DNA of 64,000 bases, counting the filler, from Perkinsus olseni (Eukaryota): assembly GCA_013115125.1 (NCBI GenBank). It is 3 parts of 3 records of this genome, joined end to end, with 100 filler letters (N's around TTAATTAATTAA, not from the genome) between each part and the next. Parts side by side here need not be neighbours in the genome. Positions count along the whole stretch, not along the records: positions 24,377 to 48,514 come from JABANN010000512.1; 2 more parts are not named here. One strand, 5' to 3'. The position numbers and the translations under genes were made by a program. The notes below the pieces were generated by a model, which saw only the letters and a program-made list of their open reading frames with translations, had not been told where the DNA came from and ran no database searches. Of the stretch, positions 3,559-48,614 are shown one piece after another (position 1 is the stretch's first letter; the number at the start of each line of letters is the position of its first letter).

Positions 3559-5145
3559 TCATAGAATATGCTGCCGAACATCATTCAGTCTGGCGAAACA
3601 TGCATCAGGAAGCCAACTCGAGGAAGATTGTCCACCACCCGGTTGGAAGAAGTTCATCCCGAGCCACTCTCGTACCAAAGACGTCGCGAAGCTGCCAGGC
3701 GGGAGGACGAAGGTAACCGACAGTTTACCGTGTCGCCGCTCCCACTGCAAACGGCGCGGTTTGACAAGAAGCGGTCTGAACCTTCCGTGGTGTTTCAGAG
3801 GATCTTCCCTCACCCCCAGCCTGCTTGCCATGGTGGAGATGAACTCACCTGTCGAATTATCAGGACGCAGACCGAATCTTGTGGGTGTTGGCAGGACCAC
3901 CTGGCTGAAATCTGGAAGCTCCGACCCGGTTTCCGATGAAATAACGATTCGTCCATCTTCTCCCAAGCACAGGTCGCCAGAAACCCCAGTCATACCGTAG
4001 CGGCCGATTCTCGAGCTCACAGCGTAGTTCCACAGCAAAGATTCAAAAGCGTTATTGTAGGTGCTCCACAGCCTTGCCGGTATCTTTGTCCTCCACAGCC
4101 GTTTCGGATACTTCACGATTGCTTCGATTAAATCATGATCATCCCTCGAGGTAACGTCCTCAGGAAGATTTCTCTGAAGTGACTTGAAATCCTTCCCAGC
4201 GATCCTCTCCGCCACACGCCGCCGGGCAGGTTCCTGTTCTCCGGCCGCCAGCAAAGCCAGTACTGCTTCCTCTACCCTGCCCGTGTTGAGGTGCCACCCG
4301 GCCACTGGTGTCATGTACCTCGGAGAGCCAAACCTTTGGGTTCCAAAGTAGTTGACGAATCCTTCCTCGGCGATATGACTCAAGGCGAGGTCGTGCGCCT
4401 CGCTCTCGATGACCTTCGAGTCACCAGCAAATACTAGGCGGAAGTAGTTGCCGCTGAGATCGCTCAGCTTCAATGGTTTCTCGACCCCCAGGGGATCTCC
4501 AACCCGAAAGGGCAGTCGCAGATGCCGGTGCTTGCGGAAGAGTCTTAGAAAAGCTTCCCGCGGCATCGTGAGGTGCTGTGTGGTGTCAGCGTGCTTGTCC
4601 TTACGACCAGCATAGGAGATGTCCTCGGGGGTGCATTCCGAGTGATGAGCCAACAAGCGAACCACACTTTGAGTGTCCATGAGGTACTTCTGGACGGTCA
4701 ACTGGACGAAGGGGCACTTCAGCAGATGGGCTCCCAGCCGCTTGGTGGAGACGTAGCTACGCAGAGACCTGTGCAACTCCAGCGGGGTTTGGCTGTCGAT
4801 GGGGATCTCCCTCACGGCGAACCCATCACGGCCGATGACCAAGTCCACCTCTTCATGGACGCGGTCGTCATTGCGCGACCACCGTAGGGTTCCACCGAAG
4901 GGCCTTCGAGTGTCGTCGAGGACCGTGGCCGATCTCATACCAAGTAGACTCAGGAACTCACCGCTCGCTGTGCTTCGAGCTGACGGACATGCTGCAGCCA
5001 TAAAGAGGAAGGAAAACTCCGCAGCAAGGACGTGATAACCCGGGAGTGCCGAGCCAGATTCAATATCCCCTCCACTATAGGAACCCTGATCGGAGTGGCG
5101 TAAGAGGATGCTCGTCGCGAACAGACTGCCAACATGCAGTACCAT
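3559..5145 (-). CDS. PUS7: tRNA pseudouridine synthase TruD/Pus7 family, intronless; true start probably an internal ATG
   Basis: Motifs ISYAGRKDKHADTTQ (catalytic Asp), LSGNYFRL, GFVNYFGTQRFG, FVLPPGSFATSLVRE. Confidence 0.9.
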   Translation of the reverse strand: MVLHVGSLFATSILLRHSDQGSYSGGDIESGSALPGYHVLAAEFSFLFMAAACPSARSTASGEFLSLLGMRSATVLDDTRRPFGGTLRWSRNDDRVHEEVDLVIGRDGFAVREIPIDSQTPLELHRSLRSYVSTKRLGAHLLKCPFVQLTVQKYLMDTQSVVRLLAHHSECTPEDISYAGRKDKHADTTQHLTMPREAFLRLFRKHRHLRLPFRVGDPLGVEKPLKLSDLSGNYFRLVFAGDSKVIESEAHDLALSHIAEEGFVNYFGTQRFGSPRYMTPVAGWHLNTGRVEEAVLALLAAGEQEPARRRVAERIAGKDFKSLQRNLPEDVTSRDDHDLIEAIVKYPKRLWRTKIPARLWSTYNNAFESLLWNYAVSSRIGRYGMTGVSGDLCLGEDGRIVISSETGSELPDFSQVVLPTPTRFGLRPDNSTGEFISTMASRLGVREDPLKHHGRFRPLLVKPRRLQWERRHGKLSVTFVLPPGSFATSLVREWLGMNFFQPGGGQSSSSWLPDACFARLNDVRQHIL

Positions 5146-18604: not shown

Positions 18605-19101
18605 TGACTAGGAGGAACTGCTGTGCCAGGAGTTGAACCGGGGACCTCTTTCTGTGGTTGAAAGGGCCCTGCAGGGACCAATGGAGTGCTCCAGGGCCAC
18701 CGTGGGACCATTTGGGATACGATGGGCGATCCACGATTTGTCGAAATGCATGCCCCTGAAGATGTGCAACGGACGATTAAACATCGCGCGAATTCGTTCG
18801 AAAAAGTTGAGTTTTTACGCAGGCTAAATCGGCGCATGTCCGATTCTCTTAGATTGCATTCTTTTCGTTCATAGGTTCGAAGCTGCTAACGCTTCGACCT
18901 CAGTGCGAATATCTTAGGTTAAGTTGTAGTGCAATATATTGCACGAAAATACAATTCGACAACCTGACACATTGCTGTGTAATTGAAGTATTATTGTGTT
19001 AGCTGAGCTATAAGGTTTCGGTTGTTAGTTGTCCGTTTAGCATGATAAGTTTACGTTTCGTTTTTTTAACCCACCCTCTCCGCCCGGGGGGGAGTTTTGG
19101 G

Positions 19102-19306
19102 GACTAAGCTGTAGTACCAGAATTTATAGACTGTCTGTATGTGTACTGGTCCGCCAATCGGTGCTCGATTTGGTTAGCCTGATCGTGACTGCTGATGTGT
19201 TGGGATGGGATTCAGTATCCGCATCAGTACGAGTAACATCAGCGGTGTTGGTGTGAGCGATCTATCGACCATTGGCGGCCACCACCTTTACTACTACAGC
19301 TGAGTC
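19102..19306. repeat. Fold-back / MITE-like element with 15-bp terminal inverted repeats
   Basis: GACTAAGCTGTAGTA (19102-19116) versus TACTACAGCTGAGTC (19292-19306), 14/15 complementary, plus nested inner inverted repeats. Confidence 0.5.
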
Positions 19307-19521
19307 AACACGTTACCGGGTTTCGGATATGGGCCAATTACTGATGATATATGTGTGATTGAGTTGATGGGTTCTTGAGTAGTGTGGAGGGAAAGGATTG
19401 TATGCTGAAGATACAGAAGAGGTCGGATCCGAGCTCATCCGAAACTGACTACTCACGAGCATTCTACGATTCTCCGCGCTCGGAAAGTGTCTTGTAGGCC
19501 CCTTCAAACTACATTGCCTCA

Positions 19522-24276: not shown

Positions 24277-24376
24277 NNNNNNNNNNNNNNNNNNNNNNNN
24301 NNNNNNNNNNNNNNNNNNNNTTAATTAATTAANNNNNNNNNNNNNNNNNNNNNNNNNNNNNNNNNNNNNNNNNNNN
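24277..24376. other. Artificial contig-join linker
   Basis: N run + TTAATTAATTAA + N run, exactly 100 nt; the same linker recurs at 48515. Confidence 0.97.
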
Positions 24377-43500: not shown

Positions 43501-46385
43501 TAGGTCGTCTAACAAGGCTGGCCATTCCGAAGGGACGGTATAGCCTGCGCCAGCTGTTACTCTGCCCGACATGCTGCCCTCCTCAGAAAGACTTCCTTCC
43601 CCAACTGATGGCCTGTGCTGTTGACACTGGAACGAATCTAGTGTTGGAGTGCGACGACAACATAACGCAGATCTCACTGATAGATCCCGAGAGCCACAGC
43701 GTCGTAGAATTGGCCGATTTCACCATGGAATCTGTGAGCCTTGGGCCAGTCACGACCGCTGGAACCCTTGCACTAGGTTCGCCACGTATTCGTTCCCAAT
43801 CTTCTCTCCGACCGTCCGACAGCAACAGCCGAAGGTACCTGCTGCCAGGACGTGCTGATGGCGCATTCGATTGGATATCAGGCCGGGCTGGCGATTACCA
43901 GCGGGACGATGCTGGGCACTTCGACGCCCTCTGGAGGCTGTTTGGCGGTCATCCAGCCACTCTCAGAAAACTCAGCGAGTGAGCCGGAAATCCGCTAGAT
44001 TTTTCGATGTGTTACCACTGAGGTACTTCGACGAGGCTACGAAGATGGATAAGGCGGAGCGGACGAAAAAGGAGATGGAGATGCGGGAGCATCGGAAGAG
44101 GGGCAAGATGCGGGACATAGTGTCCCCTTGCGTGTTTGAAGGGACGATACGAAAAAATGATGCGCTTAGGTGGGCACTTCCACTTACTCTTCCGGGGACT
44201 TGCGAAGCTAACTCGATCGCTCGGGAGCACCCGTGGGTTATCTGCTAGATTTGTCAGATTCCCTCGTTCGAATGGAGGAGGCTGCATGTCCTTTCAGGAA
44301 CTGCGCGACCGTTTTGATGAGCACCGACCCAAGTGCGCCGCTCCGTGCCGATCTGGCAATCTTCGACGAGCAGATAGCCGAGTTGATGAACAGTCGGCCT
44401 TTGCAGAATATTCGACGAGGACTCGCTGACTTGAGCTCAGGCTCTATGTGTCCGGTGAGGACCGCATCTTCCCGGACGGGAGCTATCTTTCTTGAGACTC
44501 TCAGGTGGAGTACAAAGTGATCGTGCTCGAGAGTGTCCGACATATCGTCAAGCGATGTACCAGGGATGGCGGGATAGTGGTGCCCGCAGGTCTCACACGT
44601 AGCTGGAGGGACCCGTGTTTATTCTTCGTGGCAAACTTGGCCACGTCACAGATGAGGCGCCGGTCGAGGGTCTCGTGAATAATGCGGCTGGCGATTTTCA
44701 AATAGGAGAAAGACCCAGCGTGAGTCGAGTGATGGAAGGCAGCTTCGTCTGTCAGTTGCTGATATCCGTCATCCAGTCGTGGTCGGCATGCTGCATGCCA
44801 ATCTCCTGTCCTGTAAATGGAAGCCTGTGCCAAGAGTCCAAGTGGCGAGTGTGTTGACGAGACGCCTCTTGCTCGACTGGGCCGACTCAGAGTTCGATGC
44901 GATGACTCCCATCGATAAGGCCAAGTACTAAGGACAGCAGTCAGTCGTTCTGTTCCATAGACGTCCTCGTTCGAGTCTCACGATCGCCGCGGCTGGCAGG
45001 TATAACCTCACAGCGATGCGAAACCGAAAGGACATCATCAATCAAGTTGATCATCTTGGGTTACGAGGAAGTCATGCTTTCACCTGACTCTTGTGCCTTT
45101 CCGACGTTACTGTTTCGGACACGTTCGTTTGAGTATTTTTGTTACACCGAGTTCTATGGTTGAGTCCGAGCCAAGGATACACGATGTTGTAATCAACTTC
45201 AAAGTGTGAACTGCTGGGAGGTTATGAGAACTGTCAATGCCACGTGGTAGTTGGAGCCCGTTGATAACTTGACGGACTACGAAAATTTTGATCGATATCA
45301 GTGCAGGGCCCAAGTTTCGCGGTAACAAACAGCTCCCACCTCACGATATAATTCCCGTTGAGTAAGGTCTGTGAACAATGTCTTTCGGTTTACTGATGAA
45401 AAACACTATGTTGGGTTGACACTAGAACGACCTCAAACGCGAGGACAGCATCAGTCATGAAGGCATGAACGAACGCCATTTTTCGTCAACAGCACTCAGA
45501 CTGTACGGAGGGGTTGCTTCAGAACAGGACGATCGATCAACAGTGACTGAGGGAAGCAGACGGAGCAACGGATTATGGGCATCTGGTTTCGTTTGAAGGT
45601 GTTGCACCTATCTCGTATTTCGCTCCTGACGGTCTCCCTGCAGCTCCCGGCGCTGTTAAGGTCGTCGTAGAAGTCGAGTGGAATCCTACCTGATGTTATG
45701 ATCTCCTAATTATGACGCGATAGAACTCGCATGATCGTGTTACAAGAGCAGCGAAACCTCGGGAATGTGAATCTTGAGCTTACTCTATTTCGTGTATGTA
45801 AATTGGAGTTGTGTTGCCCAGTCAACCTCCCACCAGGAAGGGTTGTATCAGACATGCCGTTACAGTGAATACTACTGAGTACGAAGGTCAGCCTAGCAGC
45901 TGAGCCTACTCCTCTCTTGGGGATAATGACCCCACCAGAGAAGGAAAGAATCATTAATCCGTAATCCGACAATCTAATCCGTAAATCTACACAATCCGTA
46001 ATTCCTTCGTTAGAAATTGTTCAACACTGTTTCACCGTCTAGATGTATAGAACGTAACGTCGCAAACATGCTGGACATACGAAGAGGTCGACACGGCTAT
46101 CCTGCGCACCCACTTGCCTTCATCATTCGGGGATACATGAGAACGCTGAAACAAACTGATACATTCCGATTTAGCTTTGTTCTCACACAACTGTTAACTG
46201 TTAGCGTTGTGAATTTGTGAGCAATCGTCGAGAAGAAGAACTCGTACTCCGATGAGCAACGGACTGCTTACAACTTTCACTACGTTTCAACACTGACAGC
46301 AATCGTTATTCGGAAAAACGAGCACCCTCAAGGTTAATTCGACCTCAACTATCCGGTGTATTGGTTAGAGGCTGAATTTTCTATG
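40600..46385. mobile_element. Degenerate repeat/transposon-derived region, possibly LTR-retrotransposon remnants
   Basis: Intron-poor broken ORFs; aspartic-protease-like CAVDTG at ~43610; integrase-like LIDISAGP at ~45290; many stops and frameshifts. Confidence 0.35.
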
Positions 46386-47869
46386 CAAACCCCGCGCTGA
46401 AAGTGCGTCCCACCCAACACTCGCAACTAAACTCGCCCACCCTTGCCAGAAATGTAGCCTGCGGCTCCAAATTGGTACTGTCGTGGCCCCACCACCGACA
46501 CACCCAATTTGGACAAGTAACTTCCCCCCAAACCCCGCAGGCTAACATTCGGCACTCTATCCGAAGTCTGTCGCCGAGCTCGTCGAGGTCACCTTTGCCA
46601 CACCGTGTACTACAATACTTATACAATCTATACAACCGCTCATCACCAGCTCTCCGGCTCCTGCAGCCAATCATCCCCCGGCCTCGAAATCTCGTTGTGG
46701 AAGGTTAGCTGTATCATCTCCGGCGCACCGTTAATCGAAGACGTGACCGGTGGTAGTTGTCGCAGGTTGTAGCCGGGATCGTCGTCGCGTGGCCACTGCT
46801 GATACTCGAGGAAGCGGTCGTCGTTAATGACACCCAGGTTGTTTGTAGCTCCCATTCCGCCGGCATCTGGACGCGCGGCGTCAGTACTCGGTAAGTAGTG
46901 CTGTAGCCTCGTCGTAGTAGAGTAGCAGGGTTCCGCCCATGAGCCAATTGCCCGAGTTGCGTAGCCGGTGCCGTAAGTCACCAGCATCGACTCCTGAATG
47001 TAGAGGTCGACGGCAGGGCTCCGCCAACGTCCAAACACTTGTATCTCCTCCCTTGTGAGGCCGGCTCGCACCAGTAGCCATGCCCCACCCCGTCTCATAG
47101 AATGCGTGCCCCAATGGTACTTGTCATTATCGGTGACACCGACCCGACTGAGGTCTCCACGCAGGTTTCTCAACCAGGTGCGCTTGGCCCAGGGTTCGCC
47201 AGATGCTCTTGCAAACAGCCACTCTGTCGCCGGTCTCCCTATCCTCCTGGCCAGCTGCAGGAGGTCGTCCATAGTGTGTACCGGGCAGAGGCGCTGCCCC
47301 TCAGGGCCCGCCCCGCAGCAGCATCCGTGGGTCCTAGTTACGCCTTCCCCACCTATGTCGGTCTTGCTGCTGCTGATGAATAGTGATACCGAACAGTCGA
47401 CCAGGTTCACCGTGGCGTCGCTCAACTTGAGCCGAACCAATTCGGATACTCTCAGCATAAACCAGCACCCAATGATGTAACCCCACGATCGCTGGCAAGC
47501 CTCGTAGCCATCAGCGTCTTCACCCATCGCCAGCAGCTGATTCACAGACAGCGGCCTTACCTGCTTGCTGGGGCCGATCCCTCGTGAGCAGGCACGTTTC
47601 ACCCGCTTCAGGGCCTGCTTCTCAGCAACGCCCAGCGGGTAGCCCGCATCGGCGCTGGTGGCGGCGGCTTGCCGTATGTAGGAGTAAGCGCTACGGTACT
47701 TACACTCCTTGAGGATGGCGGCGACTTCTTCGATGGATTGCACCGTGAGGGGGTACTCCGCGTGGCCGAGCCGCTTTGTCAGCCTTTGCCAAAGTCTTTG
47801 CCGCGATCGCCGGGGCCCAACCGTTGTAGCGGCGTACACGTCGGCTCGCAGGACAAGTAACTTCCCCCC
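46386..47869 (-). mobile_element. Compact tyrosine-recombinase element (DIRS/Ngaro/PAT-like) with short split direct repeats
   Basis: A = GGACAAGTAACTTCCCCCC at 47851-47869 and 46511-46529; B = CAAACCCCGC at 46386-46395 and 46529-46538; YR ORF lies inside. Confidence 0.8.
46643..47839 (-). CDS. Tyrosine recombinase (phage-integrase family, DIRS-type)
   Basis: FMLRVSEL (R), SSKTD (K), LCPVH, THSMRRGGA (HxxR), FGRWRS (W), VDLYI (Y): complete catalytic set; intronless. Confidence 0.92.
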   Translation of the reverse strand: MYAATTVGPRRSRQRLWQRLTKRLGHAEYPLTVQSIEEVAAILKECKYRSAYSYIRQAAATSADAGYPLGVAEKQALKRVKRACSRGIGPSKQVRPLSVNQLLAMGEDADGYEACQRSWGYIIGCWFMLRVSELVRLKLSDATVNLVDCSVSLFISSSKTDIGGEGVTRTHGCCCGAGPEGQRLCPVHTMDDLLQLARRIGRPATEWLFARASGEPWAKRTWLRNLRGDLSRVGVTDNDKYHWGTHSMRRGGAWLLVRAGLTREEIQVFGRWRSPAVDLYIQESMLVTYGTGYATRAIGSWAEPCYSTTTRLQHYLPSTDAARPDAGGMGATNNLGVINDDRFLEYQQWPRDDDPGYNLRQLPPVTSSINGAPEMIQLTFHNEISRPGDDWLQEPESW

Positions 47870-48041
47870 TACGAGGAAAAGAAAGAAAAAAAAATGATGG
47901 GCTCAGGGCAACTGAGAGACTACGAATCGACAATGGTACGCTTTAACGGGGCTCCTCCAACCGAAAGGACTCGCCACGACACTGTAGGGTAGTCAGAGCT
48001 AGTGCTGGCGCGCGCGCTCTCATCGCTGGATTTGCACCACT

Positions 48042-48514
48042 CTACACTTTGTGTAGCGTTACAGGCAAGCGGCGGTCCCACTCAACGAGCTCGTCCCGAT
48101 GAAGTTTTCTTCTCACATCACCGGCGTTGCAAAGGACGTTAGACTCATCATCGGTGGCCAGCAGACCAGCACCCTCCTCATCATCACTATCAACAACATC
48201 AGCGGCGGCTTTCCTTCTACTCCTTCTGAACCGCGAAAAGATACTCGAACGCTCTTGGTTCTCAACCCTCGACTTTCTCAAGATCACATACTCAGACGTT
48301 TCTCCCAAGGGCGAGTCCATCCCTGGCACGATGACGGATATTACTCCGTTACAAAGTCGATGATATGTCACGTAGTAGTCTTCCTCGTCGTCTGCTTCCC
48401 TCAGAGTAAGGCTTGCTTCGCTAACCTGGCTCTTCTGGACGCCGAGAGAGACGCTTCTTCTCATTCGGCTACCGGTGTAGAAGCCGTCTTCCACTGACGA
48501 TTGAGGGAAGGGAT
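48042..48514 (-). CDS. Hypothetical intronless ORF fragment next to the gap, possibly transposon-derived
   Basis: 150-aa open frame; no recognised domain. Confidence 0.25.
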
Positions 48515-48614
48515 NNNNNNNNNNNNNNNNNNNNNNNNNNNNNNNNNNNNNNNNNNNNTTAATTAATTAANNNNNNNNNNNNNNNNNNNNNNNNNNNNNN
48601 NNNNNNNNNNNNNN
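48515..48614. other. Artificial contig-join linker
   Basis: N run + TTAATTAATTAA + N run, 100 nt. Confidence 0.97.

Follow-up and report, generated by a model that had tools for sequence, protein, structure and literature searches.

A stretch of 64,000 nucleotides from the genome of the shellfish parasite Perkinsus olseni (here called the window) carries a tyrosine recombinase (YR) gene bounded by short exact repeats, and the question that this locus raises is whether the recombinase is the only gene of a minimal mobile element or a remnant of a retrotransposon. A preliminary description of the locus proposed a 1.48-kb element with the arrangement A1-YR-B1A2-B2, in which a 19-nt repeat (A) and a 10-nt repeat (B) were miniature split direct repeats and an internal B+A fusion was the junction of a circularised form; it considered both an internally deleted non-autonomous derivative and a distinct minimal YR-only element. 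We find the former option to be the better one, and the element is best explained as a non-autonomous, rearranged derivative of a Ngaro-like split-direct-repeat retrotransposon, close to SIRE/VIPER. (The window consists of three contigs joined by two 100-nt N/TTAA linkers, at 24277-24376 and 48515-48614; the latter linker is 450 nt away from the element.)

An empty site fixes the boundaries of the element

The whole element occupies 46384-48063 on the minus strand and is 1,680 bp long, as fixed by an empty site together with the other copies in the genome (a position shifted by one base, 48062-46383, is equally compatible with the empty site). When the contigs of four public runs were compared with the locus, a contig of run X1 was found to contain a joint from 46382 to 48063 that skips 1,680 nt; note that X1 is possibly not independent of the assembly and that a tandem paralog could account for its empty site (joint from 48514 back to 46091), the insertion site lying within a tandem repeat of ~744 bp in this run (46091-48514). 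In run X17 a contig passes from 48063 directly into the right flank, with flanks that differ from those of the window at many sites. An empty site, which the preliminary description had suggested looking for, is thus present in contigs of both runs, and it places the left boundary at 48063, 194 nt beyond the end first proposed (47869), and the right boundary 2 nt beyond the proposed one. A shorter form is also found in X17, where a joint from 46510 to 47851 with 19 shared letters bridges the YR part at a depth of 147, compared with about 25-85 on the flanks; the X17 contigs give no cover over the YR part itself.

The features of the element are listed in Table 1. Its left terminal segment, U, opens with a short palindrome in which the window copy carries a private substitution, and its right terminal segment is composed of A2, 115 nt, B2 and a final CA, so that the terminus reads TTTGCA. 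Each of these two segments is single-copy within the element, and the A1...B1-A2-B2 layout of Ngaro and PAT termini is not seen. No gag, RT (reverse transcriptase) or RNase H is present in the 1,680 bp, in agreement with the earlier statement that RT is lacking, and the YR is the sole ORF inside. A terminal inverted repeat was not found among the 25 longest of 36 repeat pairs. A search for structured RNA in the element ends gave no Rfam match and folding z values of -1.16, 0.89 and 0.22, that of the right segment being only -1.16 despite the hairpin in its centroid fold. An end-to-end circle joint was not among the five joints listed for the contigs of the four runs (contigs lose rare forms).

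Table 1 Features of the element and its insertion site
Feature	Position	Strand	Basis or remark
Host-derived target core TTGCC	48064..48068	-	In empty site; resembles the last 5 nt of the element, TTGCA
Host ORF, about 150 aa, last codons interrupted by the element	48042..48494	-	No Pfam match
U, true left terminal segment, 194 nt, parent-type A repeat	47870..48063	-	4/4 left ends of the family
Pyrimidine tract and AG, candidate splice acceptor closing U	47869..47894	-	Sequence; deposited model P0002
A1, second copy of the 19 nt that open the right terminal segment	47851..47869	-	Identical to 46529-46511
Tyrosine recombinase ORF, uninterrupted	46643..47842	-	Pfam match, alignment, homologs
Tail, YR stop to B1, 104 nt	46539..46642	-	Common only to the window copy and C1825
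B1, internal 10-nt copy from the right end without the final CA	46529..46538	-	Also on C1825
True right terminal segment, 146 nt, parent-type B repeat	46384..46529	-	Sister homology, right junctions
Hairpin in right segment, 18-nt arms, 83%	46466..46513	-	Repeat-pair scan; in centroid fold

The short repeats A and B are exact but are not the ends of the element

Read on the minus strand, A (19 nt) has exact copies at 47869-47851 and 46529-46511, and B (10 nt) has them at 46538-46529 and 46395-46386, with one G common to B1 and A2; the two repeats and their fusion are therefore present just as they had been described. A has no further match in the window when up to 3 mismatches are allowed, and B has one more exact match in the window, at 4782 (+), so that B alone is near chance. 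The placement of B beside A2 and at the element end is non-random (p about 2.5e-6 per placement, or 6e-5 with 25 offsets). In the assembly there are six A sites with at most 2 mismatches, all in this family; four of them follow U, two follow B1, and none has host DNA directly before it.

Because the 146-nt right segment is homologous to the right ends of sister families (see below), A and B belong to one and the same right repeat, which begins with the 19 nt of A and has the 10 nt of B almost at its end. Moreover, since these families insert after TTGYH and end in TTGCA, the junction of a true circle would be TTGCA joined to TGTA, a string that is absent from the interior of the element, and B+A is a different joint. 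The fusion can thus no longer be taken for a circularised junction, the termini being the start of U and TTGCA, and the supposed miniature split repeats give way to real terminal segments of 194 and 146 nt. A 1.48-kb A1-YR-B1A2-B2 element with 19- and 10-nt split direct repeats would be conceivable if splicing at the AG made an RNA that starts at A1, and the exact, non-random repeats and the position of the AG acceptor at the first base of A1 speak for it. Nevertheless, we regard this model as very improbable: it is largely refuted by an empty site of 1,680 rather than 1,484 nt, none of the six A sites has host DNA just upstream, and A and B are the two ends of a single 146-nt repeat homologous to the right ends of the sisters. 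The boundaries of the other copies, like those of the empty site, do not fall at A and B, an outcome that the preliminary description had itself named as fatal to its split-repeat model.

The families insert after TTGYH without target duplication

At 37 distinct left junctions in the fetched loci the host bases were T (29), T (36), G (33) and T or C (23 and 9), followed by a mixed fifth base, and in all 24 right junctions scored there was no bias after TTTGCA. None of seven loci with both ends had a target duplication, the aberrant copy on contig C1825 being the exception. Elements of these families are inserted after TTGYH, duplicate no target sequence and have TTGCA as their right end. A short core common to element and target, with no duplication, is what characterizes insertion of the YR type. 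The element end TTGCA mimics the target, as expected if a YR recombines the joined ends of the element with a host sequence that resembles them; recombination of this kind is the model put forward for DIRS (as described in PMC7192593), and the same integration model is given for Cryptons (as described in PMC3212892). TTGCC and TTGCA form an imperfect terminal direct repeat of 5 bp, which lies within the 4-6 bp that define Crypton ends, yet the same repeat occurs in the RT-linked sisters.

Short copies lack the recombinase and a second locus shares the internal junction

Comparison of the element region with its own genome gave nine matches on six contigs. On C381, C3121 and C746, U is followed by a single A and then directly by the sequence that comes after A2 (order U-A-C-B); the copies on C381 and C3121 end at B2, with lengths of 342 and 341 bp, and that on C746 breaks off after 49 nt. 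The family therefore includes three recombinase-free copies of ~340 bp, with precise ends, and one 5'-truncated copy, whereas the only complete YR-bearing copy in the assembly is that in the window. Four informative sites, none of them conflicting, place the window copy and C381 together against C3121 and C746, which argues that the YR-bearing form is nested in the family of short units. The short copies have no spacer of the CCACCC type that is found in the solo copies of sister families.

The fourth of these copies, on C1825, retains 322 nt from the right end of the element, among them the end of the YR, the tail, B1 and A2, and shows 3 differences. It is 5'-truncated, its right end lies at a TTGTA target, and a 93-nt target duplication starts right after the core; a duplication of this kind was seen in one of the 11 right ends tested. 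This copy shows that the odd internal junction was copied to a second place, and it is a precedent for a 5'-truncated insertion accompanied by a downstream duplication, with the same geometry as the 19-nt A1/A2 pair. The window form is not purely a one-off, since a second locus has the same YR-end/B/A junction. The element is a recent insertion.

The genome search that had been proposed did yield further copies and RT-bearing sisters; a full-length parent with exactly the same ends was not found in the fragmented assembly, where only sister families were seen. (Repeat counts are lower bounds, as the assembly breaks at these repeats.) Neither a full-length parent nor a fused RT-YR protein was found among 8000 longer candidates, which is weak evidence, and the left-end motif had no match in metagenome contigs. 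A search with an 11-mer for other right ends that share B gave 12 matches versus 10 for the reversed control, and the eight new ones looked unrelated. The possibility that the tail is a sister right repeat was not supported: the two are alignable by eye, but the pairwise p was about 0.17 (338/2000 shuffles), the anchored score was reached by 289/1000 shuffles and by 41/344 genomic windows, and there was no nhmmer match between the tail and right repeats.

Both ends are homologous to those of sister families, one of them linked to RT

The terminal segments were compared with those of two sister families. Neither U against their left ends nor the right segment against their right ends was equalled in any of 2000 shuffles (four scores), and two cross controls were not significant. 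Both termini therefore have their homologs in the A and B repeats of a YR family that bears RT, as in SIRE-like elements, and the kinship with split-direct-repeat YR retrotransposons that had been proposed holds. On contig C255 a gag-like ORF, an RT (RVT_1, E 7e-7) and an RNase H precede the closest YR. The leader in front of a gag-like start on C3311 resembles U, and C3311 overlaps C255 by 83 identical nt; it is on this 83-nt overlap that the link from a U-like leader to gag-RT/RNase H-YR rests. No contig overlapping the 3' end of the C255 element was found, and the internal repeats of this family, the closest autonomous one, were accordingly not observed. The C3311 leader motif occurs at 37 sites in the genome, compared with none for a reversed control, and left ends with this motif define at least four sister families. 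Most of these motif sites are found where contigs end, so that they represent repeats nearly identical to each other at which the assembly is interrupted.

Two more distant relatives of the window element are full elements with the A1...B1-A2-B2 layout: that on C222 has an A of 142, a B of 314 and a spacer of 24 nt, and that on C2780 an A of 162, a B of 127 and a spacer of 14 nt. The terminal segments of the window element, 194 and 146 nt long, are within the range of the full elements of this genome and of VIPER, and the 104-nt tail may be compared with the YR-to-B1 gap of the full elements, which is 47 and 108 nt. Of the 22 further YR loci, an RT/RNase H ORF immediately precedes the YR in 13 (translations read by eye), and the remaining nine have at most about 750 nt upstream before the contig ends. 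Split repeats were detected in two of 16 YR loci scanned, several of the others being cut by contig ends. No methyltransferase was found by Pfam family matching in seven ORFs from the relatives, a search that could miss a divergent domain, and the RT ORF of C255 ends about 45 aa after RNase H.

The recombinase is clipped at its N-terminus

The recombinase ORF (46643-47839) matches Pfam Phage_integrase (PF00589) with an E of 3.6e-6 and 27.3 bits (cut-off 27.1), and R130, K159, H246, R249, W272 and Y280 are in the conserved columns of a 71-sequence alignment. The full catalytic set noted earlier is thereby confirmed, and it agrees with the R-K-H-R-W/H-Y pattern of Ngaro and PAT recombinases. A search of PDB sequences with the window YR gave no match. 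The ORF has no start ATG, and no ATG occurs before codon 106. Similarity to the relatives starts 8 nt after A1, at residue 35 of sister protein P0003, so that about 35 N-terminal residues, corresponding to two helices, are lacking. At least 20 residues upstream of this start are present in 58 of 69 homologs, with R9, G10, A15, A28 and L32 conserved. In the predicted model of P0003 (mean pLDDT 83.6), helices 11-20 and 22-36 have a pLDDT above 90. This model matches Cre (Foldseek E 3.6e-10; VIA Z 20.8, rmsd 3.2 over 285 residues, model 28-336 to Cre 28-341) at 16% identity; note that the fold match is that of the sister's model, and that the window protein starts at about sister residue 35, so that the missing N-terminal part reaches into the region aligned with Cre from residue 28. 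The recombinase of the window element is thus clipped at its N-terminus, a feature that the preliminary description had overlooked.

The closest YR is the RT-linked one on C255, which is 61% identical and is its sister with a support of 100/100 in a tree of 31 YRs (Perkinsus and unnamed rows, with no named DIRS, Ngaro, PAT, VIPER or Crypton). In this tree the end branch of the window YR is 0.26 and that of its sister 0.5. The short branch and the intact frame would fit a recent capture, and also continued function. Identities of 64, 74 and 39% at the three codon positions of the window and C255 YRs show purifying selection somewhere on the path between the two.

In the deposited gene model P0002 the AG at the end of U serves as the acceptor for host exons, which are thus fused to a recombinase, an annotation that is hereby corrected; P0002 forms a cluster of one. 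The candidate acceptor at the end of U could feed the YR ORF. No splice joint from host exons or from U to this AG was among the joints listed for contigs of the four runs, which cover the locus incompletely. Contigs of X7 and X8 cover parts of the YR ORF (these runs are not on record as RNA), and the one intron-like joint in X7 is in a neighbouring gene.

A composite origin is the favoured explanation

We consider it reasonably probable that a SIRE-like A+B unit acquired a truncated YR cDNA, or was rebuilt around one, with a sister family's RT acting in trans and a YR carrying out integration. As its backbone the element would have a SIRE-like unit in which the parent's left repeat (194 nt) is combined with its right one (146 nt). 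These two would flank a fragment of a family YR gene, shortened at the 5' side and still joined to its tail, which is delimited by the duplicated first 19 nt of the right repeat. Copying would proceed via RNA and cDNA with RT supplied by sister families, and a YR would join the TTGCA end to a TTGYH target. This YR would most likely be that of a full-length helper, since the element's own is clipped. The 19- and 10-nt repeats may be scars of template switching or incomplete integration rather than working terminal repeats. Such an origin is argued for by the empty site, the sister-homologous ends, the C3311/C255 link and the two full split-repeat elements, by the RT/RNase H upstream of 13 of 22 YR loci and the existence of YR-free short copies, by the X17 joint across the YR part and the nested grouping with C381, and by the geometry of C1825 and a YR that lacks a block present in 58 of 69 homologs. 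As described in PMC7192593, the cDNA of DIRS-1 is mostly linear and its RT acts in trans on a truncated construct, and an internal junction is needed in cis to complete retrotransposition. Against the composite origin it can be said that the element has no internal junction of right end to left end of the kind that DIRS-1 requires, that no full-length parent with exact ends was found in the assembly and the short copies have no CCACCC-type spacer, that the YR has kept its frame and shows a short end branch, and that the tail is not assignable to a right repeat and the joint of B1 to A2 lacks the CA expected of a clean YR joint.

A YR-only element could instead move as DNA in the manner of Cryptons, its own (spliced) YR or that of a helper making a circle that reinserts at TTGYH, and the ~340-bp copies being deletion forms (A1 x A2). 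We think this unlikely, even though the uninterrupted frame with complete catalytic residues, the resemblance of TTGCC/TTGCA to the 4-6 bp repeats of Cryptons (as given in PMC3212892), the lack of an internal junction template, the candidate splice acceptor directly before the ORF, the precise ends of the short copies and the X7 and X8 contigs over parts of the ORF (from runs not recorded as RNA) all agree with it. There is a single complete YR-bearing copy in the assembly, its YR has no start codon and lacks two conserved helices, the private substitution falls in the left terminal palindrome, and the C1825 copy, 5'-truncated and with a target duplication, is unlike the product of circle integration; moreover, the 5-bp end rule is the same in an RT-linked sister family and hence is not specific to DNA movement. 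There is a still smaller chance that a retrotransposon is turning Crypton-like, having shed gag, RT and the internal junction and kept its parent's ends, and that a clipped but active YR, made via the acceptor at the end of U, mobilizes both this element and the ~340-bp units, which would be excised and reinserted at TTGYH. Such a conversion would be the reverse of the proposed origin of DIRS from Cryptons, which is discussed as open in PMC6681497.

It is likewise improbable that the locus has simply decayed in place, a full-length insertion having lost gag-RT and the internal A2, so that B1 is left over from a B1-A2 junction, the 1.68-kb form has at no time moved as a unit, C1825 holds a captured piece and the short copies are solos. 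That there is one complete copy, that sister A-spacer-B solos exist (one of them in the window at 18924-19403), that the 104-nt tail fits the YR-to-B1 gap of full elements and that the YR and both ends point to the same sister family are as such a history would have it. However, at least two deletions would be needed, the succession of U and A in four of four left ends is not explained by decay itself, no junction of U to gag was seen for this family, and C1825 has a core-type right junction of its own.

Comparison with known systems

SIRE, the companion of VIPER in Trypanosoma cruzi, is likewise a short non-autonomous unit of A and B repeats. According to PMC6681497 it consists of A2, about 30 bp and B2, the A and B repeats of VIPER are 173 and 219 bp, and the mobility of SIRE is an open question. 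The Perkinsus short unit differs from SIRE in having no spacer, and in one form it carries a clipped YR and 19- and 10-nt internal repeats. Whereas the ORFs of VIPER are listed as gag-YR-RT/RH in PMC6681497, those of the Perkinsus relatives are in the order gag-RT/RH-YR. With A1...B1-A2-B2 repeats, of which the internal ones are downstream of the YR, and with no methyltransferase detected, these relatives are Ngaro-like by structure, under a definition from PMC4157794 whose features are homoplastic according to the same paper; the window element differs from Ngaro in lacking gag, RT, RNase H and a B1-A2 junction. Split direct repeats and a YR are also common to the PAT-like elements PAT, TOC and kangaroo (as described in PMC3266345 and PMC4157794), but PAT-like elements encode a methyltransferase, and none was found after RNase H in the RT ORFs of the relatives that were scanned. 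The inverted terminal repeats of DIRS1-like elements were not found in the window element among the 25 longest of 36 pairs. Cryptons resemble it in having a YR as their sole gene, terminal direct repeats of 4-6 bp that mirror microhomology with the target, and non-autonomous forms with internal deletions (as described in PMC3212892 and PMC13465315), whereas the ends and the YR of the window element come from an RT-bearing family, the YR is clipped and there is no sign of DNA-only spread. The element can be filed neither as a Crypton nor as an autonomous element. No SIRE-like unit that retains a YR was found in the open-access literature consulted, PMC12477816 and PMC8498967 included.

Implications and further observations on the sister families

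The likely reading makes the window element an ordinary outcome of retrotransposon decay; the wider and more useful by-product is that Perkinsus has a group of YR retrotransposon families with split direct repeats that were mobile recently. P. marinus is listed in PMC3266345 as carrying DIRS1-like elements, and we found no description of the present families in the open-access literature. Their target rule is sharp and spans 5 bp, an empty site is available, and the spacer between A2 and B2 is conserved; they make the movement of SIRE-like units and the priming of reverse transcription testable, and their insertions are usable as markers for isolates. Should the element prove mobile as DNA, one way in which YR retrotransposons give rise to Crypton-like elements would be documented.

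The solo copy in the window (18924-19403, plus strand) is an A-spacer-B unit of 480 bp, 98.5% identical, of the C222 gag-RT-YR family. Four RT-YR elements of another YR clade, at L045 and L046 (C3013), L047 (C1216) and L044 (C3076), showed no split repeats and no long inverted ends within the ~10 kb retrieved for each. On C3135 (L155:5530-6510) and C1297 (L094) the left repeat is followed by a short hydrophobic ORF-like stretch that gave no match to the gag of C255.

The A repeats of C2780 (L048:2405-2450) and C222 (L043:1765-1800) end, like U, in a pyrimidine tract and an AG, which in these two elements come just before the gag-like ORF. As mRNAs of Perkinsozoa are trans-spliced (PMC9399869), this tract and AG at the end of A suggest that splicing might remove A1 from the RNA of these elements.

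On C3053 (L156:2600-2700), beside tRNA-like repeats, there is a degenerate junction of right end to left end of a sister family, which could be an internal B1-A2 relic or, as the right end is itself a perfect target, a nested insertion. Finally, four families that otherwise diverge have in common a C-rich spacer with CCACCC that separates A2 from B2 (L043:6628-6651, L048:7639-7652, L071, L105 and L134), and GGGTGGG is found near the end of several right repeats; the spacer is a candidate priming or fold-back element of split-direct-repeat retrotransposons.
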